The notes under the pieces: model-generated
Seen by the model: the letters and a program-made list of their open reading frames with translations, nothing else
Database searches by the model: none
Told to the model about the DNA's origin: nothing
Shown: one piece after another, positions 1-59,347 of the stretch
How the letters are laid out: the number at the start of each line of letters is the position of its first letter
Numbering within the stretch: position 1 is the stretch's first letter
From: an uncultured Chitinophaga sp.
GTDB lineage: Bacteria > Bacteroidota > Bacteroidia > Chitinophagales > LD1
Length of the DNA stretch: 64,000 nucleotides
Direction of reading: 5' to 3'
NCBI GenBank assembly: GCA_964493695.1
Contig: CAZBPG010000004.1
Span: 40,466-104,465 of the forward strand
Program-made: the position numbers and the translations under genes

Positions 1-3000
1 CCGATTGTTTTGACCGATCCCTCAAATCCATCGTCACCAACAAACGTAATCGCCAGCCCGAATCCTATTTGTATAAACAACACGTTAACCCTCTCCGCTA
101 CAGGTTCAAGTCTTTCATGGACAGGGCCTTCGAGTTATTCAGCTACCGGCTCACCGGTAACGCGCCTGATAACTACGACACTTTTTGGTGGAACATACTC
201 GGTAACTCAAACAGTTGCCAATTGTACTTCTGCTCCGGCAACCGTAACGGTGGTGGTAAAGCCTACACCTGGCATTACTTCCACTAGCTTTACTAATCCA
301 ACCACTTGTGGCGGAACTAACGGTAGCATTACCTTAAATGGTCTGTTTGCCGATTCTACCTACAGTGTAACTTATGACAAGAATAGCGTGGCACAAGGTC
401 CATTTACTATTGCAGCTAACGGAAGCGGACAGGTAGTTATATCAGGATTAACTGCGGGTACTTACTCAAACTTTGTTGTTACGCTTAGCGGATGTCCTTC
501 AAATCCTGTTATCGGAAGTATAACCTTAACTGATCCTTCTAATCCGCCAGCCCCAACTAATGTAACCGCCTCCCCCAATCCGATTTGTTCAGGCAACACA
601 CTTACCCTGAGTGCCACCGGTTCAAACTTAGCTTGGACCGGTCCATTATCATACAGTGGTTCAGGCTCGCCTGTTACAATTTCTATAACTGCTGTAACGC
701 AGGGGGGGATTTATTCAGTAACACAAACTGTGGCTAACTGTGTTTCACCTCCTGCAACAGTTACGGTAGTGGTTAATCCTACTCCGATAATCACTTCTAC
801 TTCGGGTGCTAATCCGACAACCTGTGGCGGAACCGAAGGAACAATAACCTTGAGCGGCCTTAATACAAGTACAAGCTATACAGTAAACTACAATAAAAAC
901 GCCAGCCCGGTAGGTCCGGTGCTAATTAGCACCAATGTAAGCGGTCAGTTGGTAATCACCGGTTTAACAGCCGGAACCTACTCTAACATAGTTGTTACTT
1001 TAACAGGTTGCCCTTCAGCGGCAGCAGGCCCAATTACTTTAACGGATCCTGCTAATCCGGCAGCTCCTGTAGCTACCAACAGTGGCCCTTCATGTTATGG
1101 AGATACACTGAAGTTGTTTGCCTCAAATGTTCTGAACGGAACTTACGTATGGACTGGTCCGGGCGGATATACTTCAACCGAACAAAATCCAATTCGTGTA
1201 AATGCAACACCTGCTATGAGTGGGGTTTACTCGGTGGTAGTTACCGTTGCAAATTGTAATTCAACACCTGCCACTACTTCAGTAACGGTAGCTTCCTGCC
1301 CTCCGGTGGCGGTTAATGATAACTACAGCACTAATGAAGACCAATCTCTAACGGTTAGTGCTCCGGGAGTTCTTACCAACGATTACGATCCTGCCAATCC
1401 TCAGCAGCCAATTACAGCTAACACAACTCCGGTATCAAATCCGGTTCATGGCACTGTTACGTTGAATGCTGACGGTAGTTTTACTTATACACCGTCTGCA
1501 AACTTTAACGGATTAGATTCTTTCATTTACAGCATTTGCGATAACGAAGCACCGCCAGCGTGTGATACTGCTACCGTTTATATTACGGTAGTTCCGGTGA
1601 ACGACCCACCGGTAGTTCCTGATACAACGGTTACCACACCGGAAGATACAGCAATTACAGTTTGTATTCCGATTACAGACCCTGAAAGCGGCACACAAAG
1701 CCATTTGATTCAAAGCATTTATTGCGGACCTAGTAACGGAACTATTGGAAGTGCTACAATTAATAACGGCTTGTTGCCGCATACGCTTTGCGTAACTTAT
1801 AATCCTAACCTGAACTTTAACGGAACAGATTCAATTTGTTTGGTGATTTGCGATAACGGCACACCGCAGCTTTGCGACACTACCAAGGTTACAATAATTG
1901 TAACCCCGGTGAACGACCCGCCAATAGCCGTTGAAGATTATTATGTTTCATGTTTGGATACAGCTATTGTGAAAAATGTAATGACTAATGACTCGGATGT
2001 AGATGGCCCAGCGTTGGCAGTAACCGGTGCTTTATGGGGGCCAAGCATCGGAACATTGTCGTTGTTTGCAAACGGCTCATTTACCTATACTCCAACACCG
2101 TTCTTTAATTCACTTGATTCGTTCTCTTATAGAATTTGTGATAATGGAACTCCGAATTTGTGTGATACGGCTGTTGTGATATTGGATTATACCTGCACAA
2201 ATACTCCACCGGTGGCGGTTAACGATAACTACACCATACCCGAAGACGACACACTAATTGGAAATGTTTCAACCAACGACTACGACCCGAACGGAGACAG
2301 TTTGATTTACAACACTACTCCGGTTGCTGGTGTTTCGCATGGTTCGCTTACATTAAACAATGACGGAACCTTTACATACGTTCCTACACCGAATTATTTT
2401 GGACCTGATTCGTTTGTTTATTCGGTTTGTGATAATGGTGTGCCGCCACTTTGTGATACTGCCACCGCATACATTACGGTGATACCGGTGAACGATCCGC
2501 CATATATACCTGACACCACGGTAACAACACCTGAAGATACACCTACCACAGTTTGTATTGAGATCACGGATATTGACGTAACCAATACTCACGTTTCGAT
2601 AGTTGGTTGTAACCCCGCTAACGGAAGTTTGAGTAGTCTGTCAGTAAACAACTTGTCAAATCCACATTTAGTTTGTGTTACCTACTCCCCCAATACCAAC
2701 TTTAACGGAACTGATTCGTTCTGCATTGTAGTGTGCGATAACGGAGTACCTTCTGCTTGTGATACCTCAGTAGTTACCATCATCGTAACACCGGTGAACG
2801 ACCCACCTGTTGCAAACAATGATAACTATTCAACTAATGAAGATACTCAACTTAATGTGGGGGCGCCTGGTGTGCAATCAAATGATAGCGACCCTGACGG
2901 TACAACCCTTACTTCTACTTTGGTGAGTGGAACGTCTAATGGTTCGGTTACCCTGAATCCAAATGGTTCGTTTACTTATACTCCCAATACAAACTTTACA

Positions 3001-6000
3001 GGCACCGATACATTTGTATATTCTGTTTGCGATGCAGGCATTCCATTACCTCCCCTCTGCGACACAGCTATTGTGGTTATTACCGTTAATCCGGTAAACG
3101 ATCCTCCGTTTATTCCTGATACAACTGTAACTACACCGGAAGATACCCCGACTACTGTATGCATTCCAATCACGGACCCTGAAACGACTACGCAAATTCA
3201 CTTAGCGTTTCTTTGTGATAATCCCAATAGTGGAAGTATAACGGCACCTTCAGTAAATCTGGCATCTAACCCGCATACAGTTTGTGTTACTTATACACCA
3301 AATACAAACTTTAACGGCACAGATTCTTTCTGCGTGATTGTTTGCGATAACGGTAACCCTATATTGTGTGACACTTCTATAGTTACTATTGTGGTAACTC
3401 CTGTAAACGATCCACCGGTTGCCAATAATGATAATTATTCAACTGGCGAGGATACTCCTTTGAACGTAGGTGCTCCGGGTGTGCAGTCGAACGATAGCGA
3501 CCCTGATGGAACTACGCTTACATCAACCATTGTTACAGGAACATCTAATGGTTCTGTAACGCTGAACCCGAACGGTTCATTTACCTATACACCGGATGCG
3601 AACTTTAACGGAACGGATACTTTTGTTTACTCAATTTGTGATGCCGGTATTCCATTGCCTCCGCTTTGCGATACAGCTATAGTGGTTATTACTGTTAATC
3701 CGCAAAACGATCCGCCATACGTTCCTGATACTACTGTTACCACACCGGAAGATACAGCGATAACTGTCTGTCTTCCTATTTCGGACGGAGATGTTGGACA
3801 GCAATACATTGCTACCATTTGTGGAACACCGGCTAACGGATTGATAACCTTTGGACCGGTAGTGAACAATGGTTCTATTCCTCCAACAGTTTGCGTAACA
3901 TACACACCAAATACAAACTTTAATGGAATTGATTCATTGTGTATTACTGTTTGTGATAATGGCATTCCGTTCCTGTGCGATAATTCAATAGTCAAGATCA
4001 ATGTAACACCGGTAAACGACCCACCGGTGGCTAACAACGATAGTTATACTACTCCGGAAGATACTCCGTTGAATGTTACACCTTCAGGTGTGTTGGGTAA
4101 TGACAATGATCCTGATGGAACAGCGCTTACATCAACTTTGATAGACAGCACTTCAAACGGCTCACTTGTACTGAATGGAAACGGTTCATTTACGTACGTT
4201 CCAAACAGTAATTACAATGGAACGGATACTTTCTACTATTCTGCCTGCGATGCCGGAATTCCGTTGCCTTCACTTTGCGATACTGCTATGGTGGTTATTA
4301 CAGTAACCCCGGGTAACGATCCTCCGGAGATTCCTGACACCACGGTAACAACGTGCGAAGACTGTCCGATAACTGTTTGCTTACCGATAACGGATACCGA
4401 TTCGTTGGATGTACACTCGTATACCAGTTTGTGCCCTGGCCAAAATGGCACAGTAACAGGAACAACCATTAATCAATCTACTAACACACTTTGCTTTACC
4501 TATACTCCGTACCTGAACGTGAACGGAAGTGATACTGTATGCTTCATAGTGTGCGATAACGGAACACCGCAGGGATGTGATACTACTACTATCACTATTC
4601 TGATAACACCTGTGAATGATCCGCCATATGCGGATACTATTTACGTGGTAACTTTCGAAAATCAACCGGTTGGAGTAAACGTAGCTTCAGCTACCGGTGA
4701 TCCGGAAGGGAATCCTCTTTCTTACAGCTACTATGGAGTTATTCCGGGTGGTGGCACGTACGGAATTACAGGTAACGGAGCTATTGTAGTTTATCCAAAT
4801 CCAGGTTTTACCGGAACGTTTGCTATCCCTTACTCTGTGTGTGACTTAAGTCCATATCCGGTGAATATCCTTTGTGATAGTGCTGCAATAATTGTTACCG
4901 TATTGCCTGAAGGTGATACGCTGATTAACCACTCTCCGGTTGCCAGCAACGATTATGTAACTACTTCGTTGAATACTCCTGTGGTTGTAAATGAATTAGC
5001 CAATGATTATGATCCGGATGGTGATGCTTTACAGGTTACTGTAACCTGTACACCTGATGACGGAAACTATACGGTGAATCCGAACGGAACAATCAATTAC
5101 TTCCCTGATAACGGATTCTTCGGGTTTGATACTATTTGCTATACCATATGCGATCCTACAGCTGTTAATAATCCAAAGCCGCTGTGTGATAATGCTATAG
5201 TGGTAATCTATGTTTCAACCGATTCTACTTCGTTCGAAAATGACCCGCCTGTGGCTGTTGATGATTTTGCTTATATCTGTGCTGATGCAAACGCTACATT
5301 GAATCTGTTGCTGAATGATAACGATCCGAATGGTGATGCCATCACTTCGGTAAGTATTATTGATAACGTTGATTATGGGGTTCTCTCAAATGCCGGGTTC
5401 GGATTCTATGTTTATACTCCAAATGGCAGTGCAGCACTTAACGATACCTTGCTGTATGAAATATGTGATAACGGAACACCATCATTGTGTGATACCGGTA
5501 TGGCTGTTATCTTCATTAATGCAACACCGGTTGTTACTCCTTCAGTTGGCTCTGCAATAGTTTGCAGCAACGATAATGTAAACATCACCTTTACTTCCAG
5601 TGTTCCGGGAACTGTTATTTCGTGGACTGCTACTAACGGAACAAGCGGAACAGGAAACATTAATACAGTGTTGACCAATAACACTTCGGTTGATCAGGTA
5701 GTTACTTACACCGTAAGTGGAACTACAGGCTTTGGTTGTGGAAGTTCTGCTCTCATAATTCCTGTTACGGTTAAGCCGCGTCCGGTGATTACGTTCACTT
5801 CAAATGGAAGTATCTTCTGTTCGGGTGAGCAGGTGGTGATTAACGCCAACTCAAATATTGCGGGAACAACTTATACTTGGTCAGGAACTAACGGATCGAG
5901 TGGCACGGGAAGTTTGATTTCAGATAATCCGGTTAACAGCGGAACCGCAAACATTACGGTAACATACACCATAATACCTACTTACAATGGTTGCGTTGGT

Positions 6001-51919: not shown

Positions 51920-52471
51920 ATGTTAGTTCTTATCTTCTTCCTCGGTGTAGTTAGCTGGACGCTCACCGAATATCTTCTTCATCGTTTTTTGGGACATGAG
52001 CATAAAGGCAAAAATTTCTTTAAGGCAGAACATGTGCTTCATCATTCTAAAGCAAATTACTTTGCTCCGGTTTACAAGAAAGTGATTTTAGCGCTGACGG
52101 TATCTGTATCTATGGTGGCTTTAATAAACCTGTTTACTTCCATGCAAACAGCGGTGGCATTTGTTCTCGGCTTTTTGACCATGTATATACTTTATGAGGC
52201 AACGCATGCACGTTTTCACCGCAAAGAGCCAATTGCGAGGCCGTTTATTATTTTAAGAAAGCACCATTTCTATCATCACTTCCATAACCCTAAAACAAAT
52301 CATGGGGTTACCACCCGCTTTTGGGATAGAGTGTTCGGAACATTTGTGCGGGTGGAGCAGGTAAAAGTTCCCAGGCAAATGAGTATGCAATGGCTTGTAG
52401 AAGACGATGAGATAAAAGACGTTTACGCCAAGCACTTCAGATTCACCCCCAACCACCTAAAGGGGGCTTAA
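51920..52471 (+). CDS. Fatty-acid hydroxylase / sterol desaturase superfamily membrane protein
   Basis: Histidine boxes HRFLGHEH, HVLHH and HHFYHHFH, with WDRVFGT. 183 aa with hydrophobic helices. The C-terminal TPNHLKGA plus stop are encoded by a repeat element. Confidence 0.75.
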   Translation: MLVLIFFLGVVSWTLTEYLLHRFLGHEHKGKNFFKAEHVLHHSKANYFAPVYKKVILALTVSVSMVALINLFTSMQTAVAFVLGFLTMYILYEATHARFHRKEPIARPFIILRKHHFYHHFHNPKTNHGVTTRFWDRVFGTFVRVEQVKVPRQMSMQWLVEDDEIKDVYAKHFRFTPNHLKGA

Positions 52472-52600
52472 AGGCAACCCCAAACCCCTAAAGGGGCTTT
52501 AATACAAAATACAAATCCGTTACTGTTGGCTGCTAAGTCCCCTTTACCTTGCTCCGCCAAAGGGCTTCGCGAAGGCGGGGAGGGATTTAGGGGTCGGGGT
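52444..52600. repeat. Cluster of three CCCCTAAAGGGG-family elements (two direct, one inverted carrying a nested GC-rich hairpin)
   Basis: The direct copies are CACCCCCAACCACCTAAAGGGGGCTTAA (52444-52471) and AACCCCAAACCCCTAAAGGGGCTTTAA (52475-52501). The inverted copy is TAAGTCCCCTTTACC[TTGCTCCGCCAAAGGGCTTCGCGAAGGCGGGGAG]GGATTTAGGGGTCGGGGT, ending at 52599. Confidence 0.75.
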
Positions 52601-53911
52601 TTATTCCTGCAACACCATCTTCACAGTCTTGTTCTTCAGTTTATGCCCGCGCACTTTATCGAGCACGGCTAAAACCTTATTGCGCTTTACGGCTACGTAG
52701 GCAATGTAATCCTGCACTTCAATCAGGCCGAGTTCTTCTTTCAGCAATCCGCCTTTTTGTATCAGGAAACCAACGATGTCAATCTTGTTCACCTTATCCT
52801 TCTTACCGGCACTGATGTAAATAGTAGCCCAGTCGCTTGGAGCGGGGAAGGTATATTTCGTGGGCAGTTCCATCTCCGTTGCTGCATCTTTAATAAACGG
52901 AGGAATAAACTCCTCTTCACTCAAAATTAAATAGGCCGTTCCCTCCGCGTGCATACGTGCGGTGCGGCCGTTGCGGTGCGTGTATGTTTCCAGTGTGTTC
53001 GGCAACTGATAATGGATAACGTGCCGGATGGCAGGAATATCCAACCCCCGCGAAGCAAGGTCGGTGGTAATCAGTATCTGGTTGCTGCCGTTGCGGAACT
53101 TCACCAGCGCCAACTGACGTTCGTCCTGCTCCAGCTTACCGTGATACACGTCATGAATCACTCCGCAGTTGTGCAGCAGCGCACTGATGCGGTCTACCGC
53201 ATCGCGGTGATTGCAAAACACCAGCGTGGTTTCGTTGCCAATCTTTGCCAGCAGCGCCATCAGTGCTTTCAGCTTATCGTTCTCCTCTGCACGCACCGTC
53301 TTCAGCGCCAGGTGCAGAGTAACATGGCCTTTCAGAAAATTAATTTCCTCCGGTTGCTCCAAACCGGCAAACGCAGGAATCTCCACGCCCCTCGTAGCCG
53401 AAGTGAGGATGCGCTTGTTCAGGTTCGGCAGATGGCGGATTATAAATTCCATCTCTTTCTGAAACCCGAACTCCAGCGATTTATCAAACTCATCCAGCAC
53501 CAGCGTCTTCACCATCTTCGTGTCGAAGGTTTCGCGCTCAATGTGATACATAATGCGCCCCGGTGTGCCTACCAGCACCGCAGGCGGATGCATGAAATTA
53601 TTCCGCTCCACCTTGGTATCGTGCCCGCCATAACAGCAATTAATTTTAAAGCCCGTGCCCATTGATTTGAATACATTCTCTATCTGCATAGCAAGTTCGC
53701 GGCTGGGGACCAATATTAATGCCTGCACTCCCGCTACATCGTTTTTGAGGAACGAAAGTATGGGTAACAAAAACGCTAAGGTTTTGCCCGAACCGGTTGG
53801 GCTCAGCAGCACTATATCTTGTCCTTTGCGCGTTTCAGCAGCTTCCAAAACGGCTTGCTGCATTTGGTTGAGGGCTTCTATTTTAAGGTTGGCGAGTATT
53901 TTCTGTATCAT
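52601..53911 (-). CDS. dbpA: DEAD-box ATP-dependent RNA helicase with DbpA-type C-terminal RNA-binding domain
   Basis: Motifs SPTGSGKT, PSRELA, VLDEFD (DEFD variant of DEAD), SAT, ARGLDIP and HRNGRTAR. The C-terminal ~75 aa (IYISAGKKDKVNKIDIVGFLIQKGGL...EVQDYIAYVAV) match the DbpA-type domain. Confidence 0.85.
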   Translation of the reverse strand: MIQKILANLKIEALNQMQQAVLEAAETRKGQDIVLLSPTGSGKTLAFLLPILSFLKNDVAGVQALILVPSRELAMQIENVFKSMGTGFKINCCYGGHDTKVERNNFMHPPAVLVGTPGRIMYHIERETFDTKMVKTLVLDEFDKSLEFGFQKEMEFIIRHLPNLNKRILTSATRGVEIPAFAGLEQPEEINFLKGHVTLHLALKTVRAEENDKLKALMALLAKIGNETTLVFCNHRDAVDRISALLHNCGVIHDVYHGKLEQDERQLALVKFRNGSNQILITTDLASRGLDIPAIRHVIHYQLPNTLETYTHRNGRTARMHAEGTAYLILSEEEFIPPFIKDAATEMELPTKYTFPAPSDWATIYISAGKKDKVNKIDIVGFLIQKGGLLKEELGLIEVQDYIAYVAVKRNKVLAVLDKVRGHKLKNKTVKMVLQE

Positions 53912-54036
53912 GTAACGGGGCGCGAAGGTAGTTTTTAATGGAGGAGGGTTGTGATTGAGTGATGGGGGAGTTTTGGTTTCAGCATGTGGGGTTTTGTTCC
54001 CCCCGTTTTTAAATTCGGATTATGTCCGGTGGTCTA

Positions 54037-54060
54037 TGGCACGAGCGGACGCTCGCGCCA
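54037..54060. terminator. GC-rich hairpin downstream of the cyclase gene
   Basis: TGGCACGAGCG, loop GA, CGCTCGCGCCA: an 11-bp stem with one mismatch, 43 nt after the cyclase stop. CTCGCGCCAG is repeated immediately after. Confidence 0.35.
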
Positions 54061-54102
54061 GAGGAGCTCGCGCCAGTGGGTGCTGCTTGGCTTACGTTGC
54101 AG

Positions 54103-54735
54103 TTAGCCCCAATATGACTCCTTGGATTTTCCTTCAATCCAAACATCGCCTAAATTCATTTTGTAACAGATGTATTTCCCTTCTCCTGGTTTGCCCTTTA
54201 CCTCACTATAGCCAATGTCATAGCAGTAATCTTTTAGACCCATTGCAAAAGCGTTGGGTCCAACTAAGCATCTGTTGCCTTTCTCACGCGCTGATGTTAT
54301 ACGGGATGCATAATTAATTGCCTCACCTATGAAAAACTTTTGCACACCCAAGAAATTACTACTGATTTCTGAAACATCCAGGTATCCATACTCAATCCCA
54401 ATTTTTACTGACACACCTTTAGGCGCAAATGGAAATGCTGTTGAATTATTTGAAAGGTATTCGCATTGTTTGTCAATATCCTTCGCTATTTCAACACAGG
54501 CTTTAAACACATCTTCTGGGTTTACGATGATTCCCAACAAAGCATCTCCCATAAATCCGACTACATCACCTCCATTATTTTCGATTGCTCTGATGCTTCC
54601 ATATAGCACGTCTCGGATGAATTGCGCTATTAGATTTTTGTCAGGGTTAGCCACCATCCTTGTAAAGCCGTTAATGTCAAGGATTATTGCGAAAGCAGTA
54701 ATGCCTTTATGTTTCGGTATTTGAATTGGGCTCAC
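54103..54735 (-). CDS. Minimal stand-alone class III nucleotidyl (adenylyl/guanylyl-type) cyclase domain protein, 210 aa
   Basis: AIILDINGFT and FMGDALLG (the two metal-binding Asp), VKIGIEYG, GEAINYASRI (Asn/Arg pair) and SEVKGKPGEGKYICYKM. The start is GTG 54735, and the frame opens only 7 codons upstream. Confidence 0.8.
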   Translation of the reverse strand: MSPIQIPKHKGITAFAIILDINGFTRMVANPDKNLIAQFIRDVLYGSIRAIENNGGDVVGFMGDALLGIIVNPEDVFKACVEIAKDIDKQCEYLSNNSTAFPFAPKGVSVKIGIEYGYLDVSEISSNFLGVQKFFIGEAINYASRITSAREKGNRCLVGPNAFAMGLKDYCYDIGYSEVKGKPGEGKYICYKMNLGDVWIEGKSKESYWG

Positions 54736-54931
54736 TATCGTTTGTTTGTTTTTTTGTCAGAACGCGCCAAACATAAATTGTCGTCACAAGCCAAACACAG
54801 TCTAAACCAAGTTTGATTGCAGGGTTTATCGGTAAAAATTCATCAGCCAAATTGTTTACGACAAAAATTTTAACGAGATAAAACCCAATGTAAATTAGAA
54901 CTGAGATAAAAAATACTTTCGCATATTTCAT
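54707..54931 (-). CDS. 74-aa two-transmembrane-helix protein overlapping the cyclase start by 29 nt (possibly the detached membrane anchor of the cyclase)
   Basis: Helices VFFISVLIYIGFYLVKIFVV and IKLGLDCVWLVTTIYVWRVL, with polar tail TKKQTNDSEPNSNTET. An A7 tract (T7 at 54749-54755 on the + strand) lies in the overlap. Confidence 0.6.
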   Translation of the reverse strand: MKYAKVFFISVLIYIGFYLVKIFVVNNLADEFLPINPAIKLGLDCVWLVTTIYVWRVLTKKQTNDSEPNSNTET

Positions 54932-54958
54932 AAGTGATTATTTTATGATGAATGTTAC

Positions 54959-55666
54959 TTAGTGACAATACTTTTTAATTACTGCATCCACATTACTAAG
55001 CCCCAACTTTCGAGCCTGGCTTAAATCTATACACCCAGTTTCTTTTTGTCCTGACATAATTTTTGCCCTTCCTCTGCTGTAATAAGCCTCAGCATCTTTA
55101 GGATTAAATTCAATAGCCTTGTTTAAATCCGCTATAGCTCCTTGGTAGTCTGGCAAGTTAACTTTTGCTATTCCCCTATTGTAATATACGTTTCTATGTT
55201 TAGGATTAAATTCAATAGTCTTATTGTAATCAGCTATTGCGCCTCGGTAGTCTTGTAATACATCTTTTGCGCATCCTCTGTTAAAGTAAGCTAGTGCATA
55301 CTTAGGGTTAAGCTCAATAGCTTTGTTATAATCTGCGATAGCCCCTCTATAGTCACGTTGGTCTTGTTTTGAAAATCCTCTGCCATAATAAGCTCTTGCA
55401 AATTTGGGATCAAATTCAATAGCCTTACTGAAATCTACTATAGCGCCTTGGTATTCTTTTAGGTTATATTTTGCACTTCCTCTGTTATGATAAGCTAATG
55501 CATCCTTAGGATTGATTTCAATTGCTTTGTTGTAATCTGTTATAGCTCCACGGTAGTCTTGTAATTTACCTTTTGCAACTCCTTTATCAATATACTCTTG
55601 GCTTGTTTGGCAGTAGCAGTACATGAAGGAGTTAAACGCAACAATTAAAAAAAACGTAGTTTTCAT
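54959..55666 (-). CDS. Secreted protein made of ~6 near-consensus TPR repeats
   Basis: Signal peptide MKTTFFLIVAFNSFMYCYCQ (ATG 55666). Then 34-aa units of the form AYxNRGxAKxxLxDYxGAIADYNKAIExNPKxA, five regular copies plus one degenerate. Confidence 0.85.
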   Translation of the reverse strand: MKTTFFLIVAFNSFMYCYCQTSQEYIDKGVAKGKLQDYRGAITDYNKAIEINPKDALAYHNRGSAKYNLKEYQGAIVDFSKAIEFDPKFARAYYGRGFSKQDQRDYRGAIADYNKAIELNPKYALAYFNRGCAKDVLQDYRGAIADYNKTIEFNPKHRNVYYNRGIAKVNLPDYQGAIADLNKAIEFNPKDAEAYYSRGRAKIMSGQKETGCIDLSQARKLGLSNVDAVIKKYCH

Positions 55667-55785
55667 GTTGATTGGTTTTTTGCCTCCTAAAAATAAAAAT
55701 AATAGACTGTTTATCATCCGCTATTCGAGATGTTAGCCTGCGCATCCCGAACGTAAGATAACAAGCGATTTTTAATCACTAAACA

Positions 55786-56195
55786 AACAGATTAAAAACC
55801 TGTAACCATCTATAGGTACTACATGCACTTTCTTGAAAGAAAACACCATTACTAATCTGTTATTCATTATAACAGTTCTGTCATTACGCATTACTAATCT
55901 GTTATTTAGTAAAACAGATTTGATATTATATATTACTAATCTGTTTTTATCTATAACAGACCTGTTTTATAACATAACAAATCTGTAATTATGTAATACA
56001 GACCTGTTATTTGACATTACTAATCTGTTATTTAAAATTACAGACCTGTTTTACAGTATAGCAAATCTGTAATTATAAAATACAGACCTGTTGTTATACA
56101 TTACTAATCTGTTATTTAGTATAACAGATTAGCAATGGTGCATAACAGTTCTGTTATGCTTTTAAGGGTCTTGATTTTTTCAAAAAACCTGTTTT
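55786..56195. promoter_or_regulatory. Array of 15 core (+2 flanking) ACAG/CTGT-core sites with ~21-bp average phasing, organised as 42- and 84-bp higher-order repeats, filling the divergent control region
   Basis: ATTACTAATCTGTT occurs at 55848, 55890, 55932, 56016 and 56100. (A/T)ACAGACCTGTT occurs at 55955, 55997, 56039 and 56081. A(A/G)CAAATCTGTAATT occurs at 55976 and 56060. AACAGTTCTGT occurs at 55871 and 56144. AACAGATT occurs at 55913 and 56123. Weaker copies sit at 55786 and about 56185. Confidence 0.8.
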
Positions 56196-56274
56196 ATTTT
56201 GCAGTAATTCTTCCATTTCGTAACTAAACTCAGGATTTATGCCCCTAAGCCGATGTAACCGGAATTATCACCGC

Positions 56275-56910
56275 ATGAAAATTCACCAGCGCGGAACCCT
56301 TGCCAGCGGAATGCTGGAAACCTACTACAAAAACAACCCTCCGTTTACGGCCCCGGTTATGCCCAAGGCCGATTTTAAAAAACTGGTGAACGACTACAAC
56401 AGCCGCTATGCCGATTTTGCCAACGGTGGCAGGGCGCAGAAAGCCGACTGGCTGATTGCCCGTGACACTTTGATACATGGGCTTGACCTGATAGCCGACA
56501 ATGTGGACGAAGTAGCGGGCGGTAACGAAGATATTATTCTGGAAGGGGGCTTTCAGCCGCGTAAAACTTTCCGCTCCGGTAAAAATACGCCACCGGTGCC
56601 CGAAATTGAATCGCTGGAACACGGTGCCACCGGTCAGTTGTTTGCCACCTGCAAACTGCTTGAGCCGAACACGTTTTACGGCTGTATAATAAGCGAAGGC
56701 GCACCGCTTGATGAACGGGTGGTGATGCGTGCCGGTAAGCTGGTTATTCCTAAAGGGCTTACCACCGCTATTCAAATTGACGAAACCAAGAAACGCAAAA
56801 AGTCTTTTGTAAACCTTACCCCAATGGTTACCTACTACTTTTATTTTTTTGCGCGCAACTCGGCCGGTGTAAGTTCGCTGAGCGAGCCACGGGCTATTAT
56901 TTGTTTGTAG
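56275..56910 (+). CDS. Orphan protein (211 aa): helical N-terminal half, FN3/Ig-like beta C-terminal half
   Basis: I placed the start at ATG 56275 (MKIHQRGTL...). The C-terminal ...LTPMVTYYFYFFARNSAGVSSLSEPRAI resembles the final strands of an FN3 domain. No family recognised. Confidence 0.65.
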   Translation: MKIHQRGTLASGMLETYYKNNPPFTAPVMPKADFKKLVNDYNSRYADFANGGRAQKADWLIARDTLIHGLDLIADNVDEVAGGNEDIILEGGFQPRKTFRSGKNTPPVPEIESLEHGATGQLFATCKLLEPNTFYGCIISEGAPLDERVVMRAGKLVIPKGLTTAIQIDETKKRKKSFVNLTPMVTYYFYFFARNSAGVSSLSEPRAIICL

Positions 56911-56982
56911 AAACGGCTAAAGGCGCGGTTTCGGTTACCGGTGTGTCCGGTTATAAACGTTGAAAAGACTGGTTTTGTCATT

Positions 56983-57073
56983 CCGAACGAAGGTTTCCGA
57001 AGTGAGGAATCTTGTATTTTTATGGGAAGCAAATACAAGATGTCTCGTTCCTCGACATGACAAATGCTCACTT
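56983..57073. repeat. Palindromic REP/MITE-like element (inverted pair of TTTGTCAT...ATCTTGTATTT units, head-to-head)
   Basis: TTTGTCATTCCGAACGAAGGTTTCCGAAGTGAGGAATCTTGTATTT, loop, AAATACAAGATGTCTCGTTCCTCGACATGACAAA. Confidence 0.75.
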
Positions 57074-57235
57074 TGTACGCCTTGTGAATAATGCTGATGA
57101 AGGCATCATCCGACAGACAAATACATCCTCTATTTGCATTCATTCCTAAATTCTCATATTCTCACACTTCAAATTAAACAGGAATGAAAGGCAATCGGGC
57201 TGTTCAATCCAAAATTTAAAATCTAAAATCGAAAA

Positions 57236-59347
57236 TTGAATTCCGGTCTTTCGTTTCAATATCCTTTCTGGTTTATCATTTTCTGTGTAGCGCTGGGTGC
57301 GGCTTATGCGGCATTGCTTTACTACCGCGACACTACCTTCGATGAAAAAACCTCGGGCAGTAAATGGTGGAAAAATGCCATGACGTGTTTCCGGTTTGTG
57401 GCGGTTACGGTGCTGGCGGTTCTTCTTCTTTCGCCTTTTATAAGAACCCGCAACACCCAAAAATTTAAACCGGTGGTGGCGGTGATAAACGACAACAGCG
57501 AATCGGTAAAAAACAGTTTCGGAAAAGATTCAACTGCATACCAAAAGAAACTCCTCGTGCTCATAGATAAGCTGAGCGAGAAATATGAAGTGGCACAGTT
57601 CAATGCCGGTGATGAACTTAAACGCGGCATTGATTTTTCGTACCGCGATAAATCAACCGACCTCAGCCATGCCATTGATGAAGTAAACGATTTGTATTAC
57701 AACCAGAACCTGGGCGCGGTGGTTATTGCCAGCGATGGTATTTATAACAAGGGCGTAAATCCGGTTTATTCGGCTGCCAGGGCTTCGTATTCGGTTTACA
57801 CTATTGCGCTGGGCGACACTACTATTCAGAAAGACCAGAAACTTTCGAATGCCTATTACAACAAGATAGCTTACCTCAACGACCGGTTCTCGCTCAGGGT
57901 AGATGTGGAAGAAAATAATTTGTCGGGCAGGAATGTAAAACTGAGCGTGTATGAAATAGTAACCGGCAGCGATGCAAAGCTTATTCAGAGCAAAGACATT
58001 TCGTATACCTCCGATAACTATTTCCAGAGTTTTGATTTTGTGCTGCCTGCCGATAAAGCGGGCATTGCGCATTACCGCATTTCGCTTTCAAACACCGAAG
58101 GCGAAATTACTTACCGCAATAACGTGCGCGATGTATTTGTAGAAGTGCTGGACAGCAGGCAGAAGATTCTGCTTGTAGCCAACTCTCCGCATCCGGATAT
58201 TGCCGCCTTTAAAGCCGCTATCGAAAGCAATAAGAATTATCAGTTAGAGGTGGAGTATGCCGAAACATTTTCGAAAAAACTGAACGATTACAATCTGGTT
58301 ATTCTTCATCAGTTGCCTTCTGCGGTTAATAAAGTGAGCAACATTTTAAGCGATGCAAGAGATTTGAAAAAATCGCTGCTCTTTGTTCTCGGCTCTCAAA
58401 CTTCCATCCCCGAGTTTCAAAAAGCGCAGAACGGTTTGGTAATAAAAGGCAATGCCGATAAGTTTAACGAAGTAACCGCTAACGTGGCAAAAGATTTTGC
58501 CCTCTTTACCCTCTCCGATAAAACGGTGCAGACTATTCCTAAACTGCCGCCCTTCAGTTGTTTCTTTGGTGAATACAGTGCCAATCCATCGTCTAAAAAA
58601 CTTTTGCAGCAAAAAATAAATGCAGTGGAAACCGATTTTCCGCTTTGGCTGTTCAACGAAACCGGTGACGAAAAATTCGGGGTAATTTGTGGCGAAGGTT
58701 TGTGGCGCTGGAGATTGTATGATTATCTCATCAACAAAAATCAGGAAGCTACGAACGAACTCATCAACAAAACGGTGCAGTATCTTTCGGTAAAAGCCGA
58801 TAAGCGGCCTTTCCGCGTTAACCTGCCTAAGAATATTTTTCAGGATAACGAAGCCATCACTTTCGATGCCCAGCTTTACAACGCCAATTACGAACTCATC
58901 AACGCTGCCGATGTAGAAATGAAAATAAAAGACGAAGACGGCAAAGAATACGATTACAAATTCAACAGAACAGAAAACGCTTACAACCTGAATGCAGGTT
59001 TTTTACCGGTGGGCAATTACGCTTACAATGCTTCGGTAAAATTCGGCAACGGAACTTATACGGCTAACGGAAAGTTTTCGGTTAGCCCGTTGCAGTTAGA
59101 AGAAATGCGCACCCGTGCCGACCATCAGGTGCTGTTTCAACTGGCATCGCAGCACAACGGTGCCATGCATTACTTAAACGACCTGGAAAAAATTGCCGCT
59201 GAAATTGATTCGAAAAATCAACTCAAGCCCATTCTTTACGATACCTTTATGACGGAGAGCGCCATTAATCTCAAATGGATTTTCTTTCTGTTGCTTACAC
59301 TCATTTCTGCCGAGTGGGTTATCCGAAAATATTTAGGAGGGTATTAA
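57236..59347 (+). CDS. 703-aa membrane protein, function unknown (N-terminal double TM, large soluble region, C-terminal TM)
   Basis: TTG start; the frame opens 3 codons upstream and there is no in-frame ATG nearby. TM segments are FWFIIFCVALGAAYAALLYY, FRFVAVTVLAVLLLSPFI and WIFFLLLTLISAEWVI. I am not confident of any family assignment. Confidence 0.75.
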   Translation: MNSGLSFQYPFWFIIFCVALGAAYAALLYYRDTTFDEKTSGSKWWKNAMTCFRFVAVTVLAVLLLSPFIRTRNTQKFKPVVAVINDNSESVKNSFGKDSTAYQKKLLVLIDKLSEKYEVAQFNAGDELKRGIDFSYRDKSTDLSHAIDEVNDLYYNQNLGAVVIASDGIYNKGVNPVYSAARASYSVYTIALGDTTIQKDQKLSNAYYNKIAYLNDRFSLRVDVEENNLSGRNVKLSVYEIVTGSDAKLIQSKDISYTSDNYFQSFDFVLPADKAGIAHYRISLSNTEGEITYRNNVRDVFVEVLDSRQKILLVANSPHPDIAAFKAAIESNKNYQLEVEYAETFSKKLNDYNLVILHQLPSAVNKVSNILSDARDLKKSLLFVLGSQTSIPEFQKAQNGLVIKGNADKFNEVTANVAKDFALFTLSDKTVQTIPKLPPFSCFFGEYSANPSSKKLLQQKINAVETDFPLWLFNETGDEKFGVICGEGLWRWRLYDYLINKNQEATNELINKTVQYLSVKADKRPFRVNLPKNIFQDNEAITFDAQLYNANYELINAADVEMKIKDEDGKEYDYKFNRTENAYNLNAGFLPVGNYAYNASVKFGNGTYTANGKFSVSPLQLEEMRTRADHQVLFQLASQHNGAMHYLNDLEKIAAEIDSKNQLKPILYDTFMTESAINLKWIFFLLLTLISAEWVIRKYLGGY

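Follow-up and report, generated by a model that had tools for sequence, protein, structure and literature searches.

Pycsar-1 systems consist of stand-alone nucleotidyl cyclases and three-transmembrane (3TM) pJV1-spdB3 effectors (PycTM), sometimes with several cyclases per locus (PMC11224242; Chakravarti et al., bioRxiv 10.64898/2026.08.12.744502, who describe multi-cyclase Pycsar-1 loci and their 3TM effectors). In this study, we analysed a 64,000-nt stretch of contig CAZBPG010000004.1 (hereafter the window), in which the gene of a 210-amino-acid (aa) class III nucleotidyl cyclase begins inside the gene of a 74-aa protein that is predicted to form a helical hairpin. A type IX secretion system (T9SS) sorting domain and typical gene content place the window in the Bacteroidota.

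The window cyclase resembles the Pycsar cyclases (PycC) in being a minimal class III domain without a sensor that matches PADLOC PycC models, and members of its family adjoin PycTM genes, alone or together with a canonical PycC, and commonly lie in defence-island surroundings. It differs from them in that no PycTM, PycTIR or second cyclase was detected in the window, the locus is flanked by housekeeping genes, other residues stand at the base-recognition positions of BcPycC and EaPycC, and the best PycC match (E 3.6e-14, residues 12-164) compares with 1e-54 for the canonical PycC proteins that neighbour its relatives. The best structural matches, Spirulina CyaC (1WC0-1WC6), Synechocystis Cya2 (2W01) and Pseudomonas aeruginosa CyaB (3R5G), share its metal Asp pair, Asn/Arg pair and GK lysine, but they are only 16-20% identical to it and have sensory or regulatory domains at the N-terminus and a Lys or Glu that specifies purines, whereas the window protein is a bare catalytic domain with Gly at the purine position. 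As in mycobacterial Rv1625c-type cyclases, a membrane helical segment is encoded directly 5' of the cyclase domain, and a one-base change would fuse the two; unlike in those enzymes, the two are separate polypeptides in every known relative of the window locus, and the hairpin protein also occurs independently of cyclases. Finally, the hairpin protein resembles the PycTM/PucTM 3TM effectors (PF18967) as a small membrane protein beside a Pycsar-type cyclase, but it has two helices and about 74 aa, without the roughly 70-aa cytosolic region of PycTM.

A stand-alone class III cyclase

A search of the cyclase with PF00211 gave a match above the curated threshold (25 bits vs a cut-off of 21.9; E 1.6e-5; residues 19-191), and eight PADLOC PycC models matched, the best of them partially, as given above. 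The AlphaFold2 (AF2) model was of high confidence (pLDDT 92, pTM 0.90). Foldseek returned CyaC, Cya2 and CyaB as the best PDB matches (1WC5, 2W01 and 3R5G; TM-score 0.70-0.79; E about 1e-14), and the family profile matched CyaC, BcPycC, bPAC, CyaB and sAC in the PDB. Among 5.8 billion proteins searched, 144 homologues were found, nearly all stand-alone proteins of 205-215 aa, from Bacteroidota, Verrucomicrobiota, Planctomycetota, delta-proteobacterial and other lineages.

In an alignment of 37 sequences, D64, N141, R145, K182 and twelve further positions were invariant, and D20 was kept in 90% or more of the homologues. The metal-binding D20 and D64, the N141/R145 pair and the GK lysine K182 aligned with their counterparts in CyaC and BcPycC. 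Compared with the related loci L110 and L004, the cyclase had a dN/dS of about 0.07, with synonymous sites nearly saturated (pS 0.66-0.8), showing that it is under purifying selection. Judged by its alignment and predicted fold, the window cyclase is an intact, regulator-less, stand-alone class III nucleotidyl cyclase. An earlier note, made from the letters of this stretch without database searches, had proposed such a minimal sensor-less enzyme, had recognised its catalytic motifs by eye and had suggested the PF00211 search; the results bear out both the class and the motifs.

The residues expected to specify the base were different. The position occupied by Lys or Glu in canonical purine cyclases is G60, and the equivalents of the uracil-recognising Y50/D94/R97 of BcPycC and the cytosine-recognising F100/R142/Q144 of EaPycC are I18, M62, A65 and G60. 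In the alignment, I18/G60/M62/A65 fit neither the pyrimidine nor the canonical purine pattern.

Separate products from overlapping genes

We examined how the cyclase gene is joined to the hairpin gene (Table 1). The arrangement in the earlier note, with the cyclase starting at a GTG inside the small membrane-protein open reading frame (ORF), was reproduced for both ORFs, as were the opening of the cyclase frame 7 codons 5' of the GTG after a TGA and the run of seven A in the mRNA (A7; 54749-54755, minus strand), which lies within the A-rich region listed in Table 1. Deleting one A joined the two frames as predicted and gave an in-frame fusion reading ...LTKNKQTIVSPIQIP, with a computed length of 275 aa (previously put at about 280), and adding one A gave a 65-aa protein ending ...TKKTNKR that stops right at the GTG.

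Table 1. Positions of the features discussed in the window (positions count from its first nucleotide)
Feature	Position	Strand	Remarks
Secreted TPR-repeat gene, first of putative operon	54959-55717	-	ends 27 nt before the 74-aa ORF
74-aa hairpin ORF	54707-54931	-	ATG start; last 29 nt overlap the cyclase start
A-rich initiation region of the cyclase GTG	54736-54760	-	within the 3'-terminal part of the 74-aa ORF
Cyclase ORF	54103-54735	-	210 aa; GTG start
GC-rich hairpin 3' of the cyclase stop	54025-54070	-	stem GGCGCGAGCG/GCUCGUGCC, from the fold of 53912-54110 (-)

Three explanations had been offered for this arrangement: two products made by translational coupling, a fusion switched by the homopolymer, or an assembly indel. 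We compared the window with related loci. The family N-terminus, M-x-I-x-I-P in the 37 aligned homologues, coincides with the GTG, and a GTG at the same position also starts the cyclase in L110, L120 and L004. The next in-frame Met is M27, and a start there would lose the first strand, which bears D20. The two genes overlap by 29 nt in the window (tract A7) and by 29 nt in L110-L113, four independent contigs in which the tract reads AAAGAAC and contains no homopolymer; the overlap is 23 nt in L120 (one contig, tract A6TAAA) and 4 nt (GTGA) in L004 (one contig, tract A8). Since overlaps and tracts differ among the four lineages, indels have occurred in the A-rich stretch and altered the hairpin tail; every variant observed nevertheless leaves the two ORFs separate.

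The comparison of fused and split architectures that the earlier note had called for gave the same answer: the closest homologues are all stand-alone. No N-terminal transmembrane (TM) segment was present in the 120 best cyclase matches or in the longer matches, and when 1.84 billion representative proteins were searched exhaustively with the hairpin profile (HMMER), no fused hairpin-cyclase was returned. A 447-aa ORF in L019 was considered as a fused form and rejected as a longest-ORF artefact. The features expected of a TM-fused class III cyclase were thus missing, with two ORFs in different frames and homologues that all stand alone, and those of a tract switch were missing as well, because the tract has diverged among the lineages (A7, AAAGAA, A6T, A8) without fusing the genes in any of them. 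An overlapping gene pair fits: the arrangement is conserved in four lineages, and both genes are under selection. These comparisons show that the cyclase would be made as its own 210-aa protein and that separate products are the norm of the family.

We then considered the A-rich tract itself. In Bacteroidia, ribosomes ignore the Shine-Dalgarno sequence, and A at positions -3, -6 and -11 to -14 promotes initiation, as measured in Flavobacterium johnsoniae (PMC6847099). In the window, L110, L120 and L004, the 25 nt before the GTG were 60-72% A, compared with 28% A in the genome, with A at -3 and -6 and an A-rich stretch at -11 to -14; the homopolymer itself was not conserved among these lineages. 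Because the A-rich pattern matches the Bacteroidia signature in four lineages, the A7 run is best read as part of the cyclase start signal, not as a fusion switch. This correspondence had escaped the first reading of the window. The upstream ORF terminates 4-29 nt past the GTG, which makes coupling or re-initiation plausible, and translation of the hairpin gene probably assists that of the cyclase. Of the three original explanations, the comparative data favour two products made by coupling. More generally, an A run before a GTG within an upstream ORF of the Bacteroidia should preferably be read as an initiation signal rather than as a frameshift or phase-variation site.

The hairpin protein and its family

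The 74-aa ORF is a real gene under purifying selection, with a dN/dS of 0.04-0.27 when its first 60 codons were compared with those of three homologues. AF2 predicted helices at residues 3-29 and 37-65 with low confidence (pLDDT 65). Helix 1 is strongly hydrophobic and helix 2 moderately so (mean Kyte-Doolittle value of residues 39-57 about 1.2, hand-calculated). The invariant residues are K21 in helix 1, K40 and D44 in helix 2, and W47, W55 and R56. Because helix 2 is only moderately hydrophobic and contains the invariant K40 and D44, two TM helices are less than certain; the two hydrophobic helices of the earlier note hold for helix 1 and are probable as a TM pair. The topology is probably N-in/C-in, with a polar C-terminal tail.

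The hairpin family comprised seven distinct sequences of 66-83 aa. The exhaustive HMMER search found three clusters only, of 74-83 aa, and a word-indexed search with a four-sequence alignment added solely the L004 protein. The hairpin protein had no match in Pfam, PADLOC or NCBIfam. We also considered whether it is a truncated PycTM, and rejected this, as an HMM built from 11 PycTM neighbours gave no match at E up to 10 and hhalign put the probability of kinship with PycTM at 0.5%. The L120 copy of the gene (1335-1553, 72 aa) was not called by the source gene finder and is therefore absent from protein databases, so the rarity of the family is partly an artefact of small-ORF annotation; small ORFs of this kind escape gene callers.

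The gene order around the hairpin gene was compared among the loci. The window, L110 and L120 have a secreted TPR gene, the hairpin gene and the cyclase gene in this order, and L004 has a lipoprotein gene in the first position. The three other loci contain the hairpin gene without a cyclase: L114 has TPR, hairpin and a 161-aa unannotated protein with an RNFVAH motif; L116 has trypsin-TPR and hairpin, followed by a convergent gene; and in L118 the hairpin gene precedes a MoxR/DUF58/vWA operon. A TPR gene ending KYC[HKQ] lies directly 5' of the hairpin gene in the window, L110, L114 and L120, and the trypsin-TPR gene holds the same position in L116. The hairpin gene is thus tied more constantly to the upstream secreted TPR gene than to the cyclase, a point that the earlier note had missed.

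Homology between L114 and the window ends right past the hairpin stop, and the L114 tail still resembles the tails that overlap a cyclase, which suggests that the 161-aa protein may have replaced the cyclase there. This protein (L114 1489-1974; L115 705-1190) looks all-helical, and its gene overlaps the hairpin gene by 4 nt (ATGA). Sequence searches of Pfam, PADLOC, NCBIfam and the PDB gave nothing significant for it, and the idea of a HEPN protein rests solely on the RNFVAH (Rx4H) motif. The hairpin gene of L118 (70-321) encodes a distant member of 83 aa and stands directly 5' of genes for a MoxR AAA ATPase, a DUF58 protein and two vWA proteins (462-5321), an arrangement of Bat-like or vWA-MoxR type.

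Pycsar ancestry of the cyclase

To place the cyclase, we examined 80 non-redundant loci of its family from genome and metagenome collections. The commonest neighbour was PycTM (PF18967; 12-13 of the 124 neighbours scanned), followed by a second cyclase, a canonical PycC (about 238 aa; best PADLOC E 1e-68), and then by GmrSD, DUF5131, Mrr, EVE, AbiU2, DarT and restriction-modification methylases. Among the 31 loci whose flanks extend for 2 kb or more on each side, eight contained PycTM and six a second cyclase. In L037 and L098, the window-family cyclase was the sole cyclase found beside PycTM, which is the canonical two-gene Pycsar arrangement. In a neighbour-joining tree, the window/L110/L004 clade was sister to five Bacteroidota loci that all have the order PycTM, PycC, cyclase, and it nested with two more loci of this order. 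On tree and neighbourhood, the window cyclase is shown to belong to the Pycsar (PycC) radiation, and the simplest explanation of these data is an accessory-type Pycsar cyclase whose PycTM and PycC partners were lost.

At the window locus itself, neither PycTM nor a TIR protein with a cyclic nucleotide-binding domain (CNBD-TIR) is adjacent to the cyclase, and the two upstream genes had no effector match in Pfam or PADLOC. Searches of the window ORFs of at least 40 aa with PycTM and PycC HMMs, and by phmmer with Escherichia coli CRP, gave no match, the CRP test being of low sensitivity. The PADLOC matches together with this empty search agree with the earlier note, which had called the cyclase Pycsar-like with no effector nearby that binds a cyclic mononucleotide (cNMP). 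Searches by tblastn found no match in phages and, in plasmids, distant cyclases only (33% identity or less).

The three-gene Bacteroidota loci have PycTM, a 238-aa PycC and a 210-aa cyclase, with gene gaps of 1-13 nt (L002 3757-5630, L006 4774-6624, L030 3755-5627, L031 1485-3335, L033, L007 and L034). Ala occupies the position of the transition-state Arg/Lys in the canonical PycC of the L002 group (VNFASAI), whereas the 210-aa partner keeps N141/R145, raising the possibility that the two form a heterodimer. The sole homologue found in a complete genome is in Spirosoma radiotolerans (L001 1-10624; CP010429.1, 384774-395397), the other genome-collection matches being contigs of metagenome-assembled genomes. 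It is flanked on one side by a type I/IIG restriction-modification cluster and on the other by an integrated element (DUF3987 primase-like, HTH_17, DUF5681), with no PycTM, and makes S. radiotolerans a tractable organism with an orphan member of the family.

The putative operon and nearby elements

The TPR gene matched TPR_11, TPR_1 and TPR_2 (E down to 2e-42), and an internal MKTTFFLIVAFNSFMYCYCQ segment of its product resembles a signal peptide as read from the sequence. At the other end, the GC-rich hairpin, 40-75 nt past the cyclase stop, is probably the terminator of the operon, or alternatively belongs to a structured 5' leader of the DEAD/DbpA helicase gene. The hairpin has 10 bp, and its region gave a z-score of -3.6 vs shuffles; it lies in a GC-rich island (53912-54102, minus strand) with a direct repeat CTGGCGCGAGC, compared with 44% GC for the window. 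A consensus terminator scan found no site, because the hairpin has no T run, and no Rfam family matched 52000-58000 at E up to 1.

About 6.7 tandem copies of a 42-nt unit (sub-period 21) occupy 55847-56128, in the intergenic region from which the TPR gene (minus strand) and the ORF at 56239-56910 (plus strand) diverge. The units are made up of the recurring half-sites ATTACTAATCTGTTATT and ACAGACCTGTT, and the array may serve as a set of operators or be a repeat element in decay.

Discussion

We propose that the window cyclase is a co-operonic Pycsar-type alarm cyclase producing a cNMP, made as a separate protein and functionally paired with the hairpin protein, a reading to which we give about an even chance. 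The TPR, hairpin and cyclase genes would be co-transcribed as one operon on a Bacteroidota chromosome. Ribosomes would start at the conserved GTG through the A-rich, Shine-Dalgarno-free region in the last codons of the hairpin gene, probably assisted by translation of that gene through coupling or re-initiation, and the cyclase would be released as a 210-aa cytoplasmic protein, co-produced with the hairpin protein. There it would act as a head-to-tail homodimer making a 3',5'-cyclic mononucleotide. The lineage would have lost its PycTM and PycC partners while the cyclase became fixed behind the hairpin gene, and the pair would then have moved as a unit as the flanking genes changed. Most likely, the cyclase would synthesise cNMP as an alarm signal of phage infection or stress, perhaps while tethered to the membrane through the hairpin protein, with the cNMP receptor encoded elsewhere than beside the cyclase. 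In this model, we infer the coupling, the homodimer activity, the physical link between hairpin protein and cyclase, and the role in defence.

The functional pairing is favoured because the two genes travel together while both flanks change. All four cyclases of the clade have the hairpin gene immediately 5', the gene downstream of the cyclase differs among relatives (DEAD helicase, PIN, topoisomerase IV), and the upstream gene also differs in L004. Several observations weigh against our proposal. The pairing is seen at four loci, all metagenomic, and the hairpin gene occurs without a cyclase in L114, L116 and L118. The locus is surrounded by housekeeping genes (miaA, CCA-adding enzyme, DEAD/DbpA helicase, Sua5; also a major facilitator superfamily transporter and a fatty-acid hydroxylase) rather than by a defence island. 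In the 64-kb window, no cNMP-binding, TIR or PycTM receptor was found, at limited search sensitivity, and the enzyme does not conserve the residues by which BcPycC and EaPycC recognise uracil and cytosine, respectively.

The loci without a cyclase imply that the hairpin protein is not a dedicated cyclase partner and that the cyclase may just use its transcript. An orphaned accessory Pycsar cyclase would then borrow the transcription and translation of an unrelated envelope operon (TPR plus hairpin) in which the hairpin protein has no role for the cyclase, and its cNMP would target a receptor encoded elsewhere or top up another Pycsar-type system. This is possible, though we hold it less probable than the pairing; it explains the data nearly as well because the hairpin family also lives without cyclases. 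TPR and hairpin genes are adjacent in five of the six loci with a visible upstream gene, the cyclase of L114 seems to have been exchanged right past the hairpin stop, as in a variable slot, and in the sister clade the cyclase supplements a PycTM and PycC pair that is already complete. The hairpin protein also has almost no cytoplasmic mass with which to bind a nucleotide. However, the hairpin-cyclase pair persists where the upstream gene (L004) or the downstream genes change, its overlapping frames persisted while synonymous sites neared saturation, and the 64-kb window shows no other Pycsar component.

A bolder view, which we regard as doubtful, is that the hairpin protein, with its invariant intramembrane K21, K40 and D44, is a new minimal membrane module of conflict systems. 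In one version, it would be the smallest known cNMP-responsive membrane effector and would have replaced PycTM in the window clade. In the other, it would be a transmembrane relay: a fast-evolving secreted TPR protein would sense a periplasmic signal and pass it through the hairpin protein to interchangeable cytoplasmic outputs, in the window a Pycsar-type cyclase and in L114 the 161-aa protein, whose RNxxxH motif is HEPN-like. If true, either version would give a Pycsar-derived cyclase an outside-in sensing route.

It is somewhat less likely still that the three genes encode a split receptor cyclase of ordinary physiology, with a periplasmic TPR sensor, a membrane hairpin as transducer and a cytoplasmic cyclase whose cAMP or cGMP would inform a Crp/Fnr-type regulator, encoded elsewhere, of a cue from the envelope or the environment. 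The housekeeping flanks, the secreted-looking TPR protein directly upstream in most loci, the strong purifying selection on the cyclase and the absence of the pyrimidine-recognition residues of characterised PycC enzymes would agree with this. Against it, the recurrent neighbours of the family are defence genes (PycTM, PycC, GmrSD, Mrr, AbiU2, DarT), the purine-specifying position is G60, unlike in canonical adenylyl and guanylyl cyclases, and the location of the cassette differs in each relative, as for mobile accessory genes. Moreover, the TPR proteins are 36-48% identical, compared with about 73% for the hairpin proteins.

A fusion by loss of one A through replication or transcription slippage, in which a 275-aa membrane-anchored cyclase would be a phase-variable or minor alternative product, is in our view highly improbable. 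Six A do join the frames cleanly, the tract length varies across lineages (A7, A8, A6T) in a way that alters the hairpin tail, and A_AAA_AAA in the hairpin frame reads as a slippery pattern. But L110-L113, without a homopolymer, keep the identical 29-nt split, all tract variants leave the ORFs separate, and no fused form occurs among the 120 cyclase matches or the hairpin-profile matches in 1.84 billion proteins. A -1 ribosomal frameshift at A_AAA_AAA was rejected as a route to the fusion, because the -1 frame leads to the 65-aa product instead. A run of A7 is short for efficient slippage, and with 24 runs of at least seven A or T in the window the one at this locus is ordinary. A uniform A6 tract, which the earlier note had taken to indicate an ordinary membrane-anchored cyclase, would create an architecture without precedent in the family.

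Least likely of all is a homopolymer error in sequencing or assembly that conceals one membrane-anchored cyclase: one base fewer does fuse the frames and such errors are frequent in some sequencing chemistries, but ENA, Logan and JGI assemblies from different samples and pipelines show the same split in four related lineages, one of them without a homopolymer, the hairpin tail in its own frame is similar in the window, L110, L114 and L120, and the cyclase family is stand-alone throughout. The readings thus become progressively less likely from the pairing, through borrowing of the transcript and the TPR-sensor receptor, to slippage and assembly error.

As an enzyme, the cyclase adds a new member to a known family, and the novelty lies in an arrangement that lacks a canonical effector and wires it to a rare miniature membrane protein behind a secreted TPR protein. 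The locus is a natural experiment on how Pycsar-type cyclases are activated and on what the extra cyclases of multi-cyclase loci do: an accessory-type cyclase has apparently lost the canonical cyclase and the 3TM effector and is still strongly selected. If the pairing is not functional, defence-type cyclases would persist as orphans that must signal in trans. If it is functional, the locus would point to a new receptor, anchor or sensor in the cNMP immune signalling of Bacteroidota.

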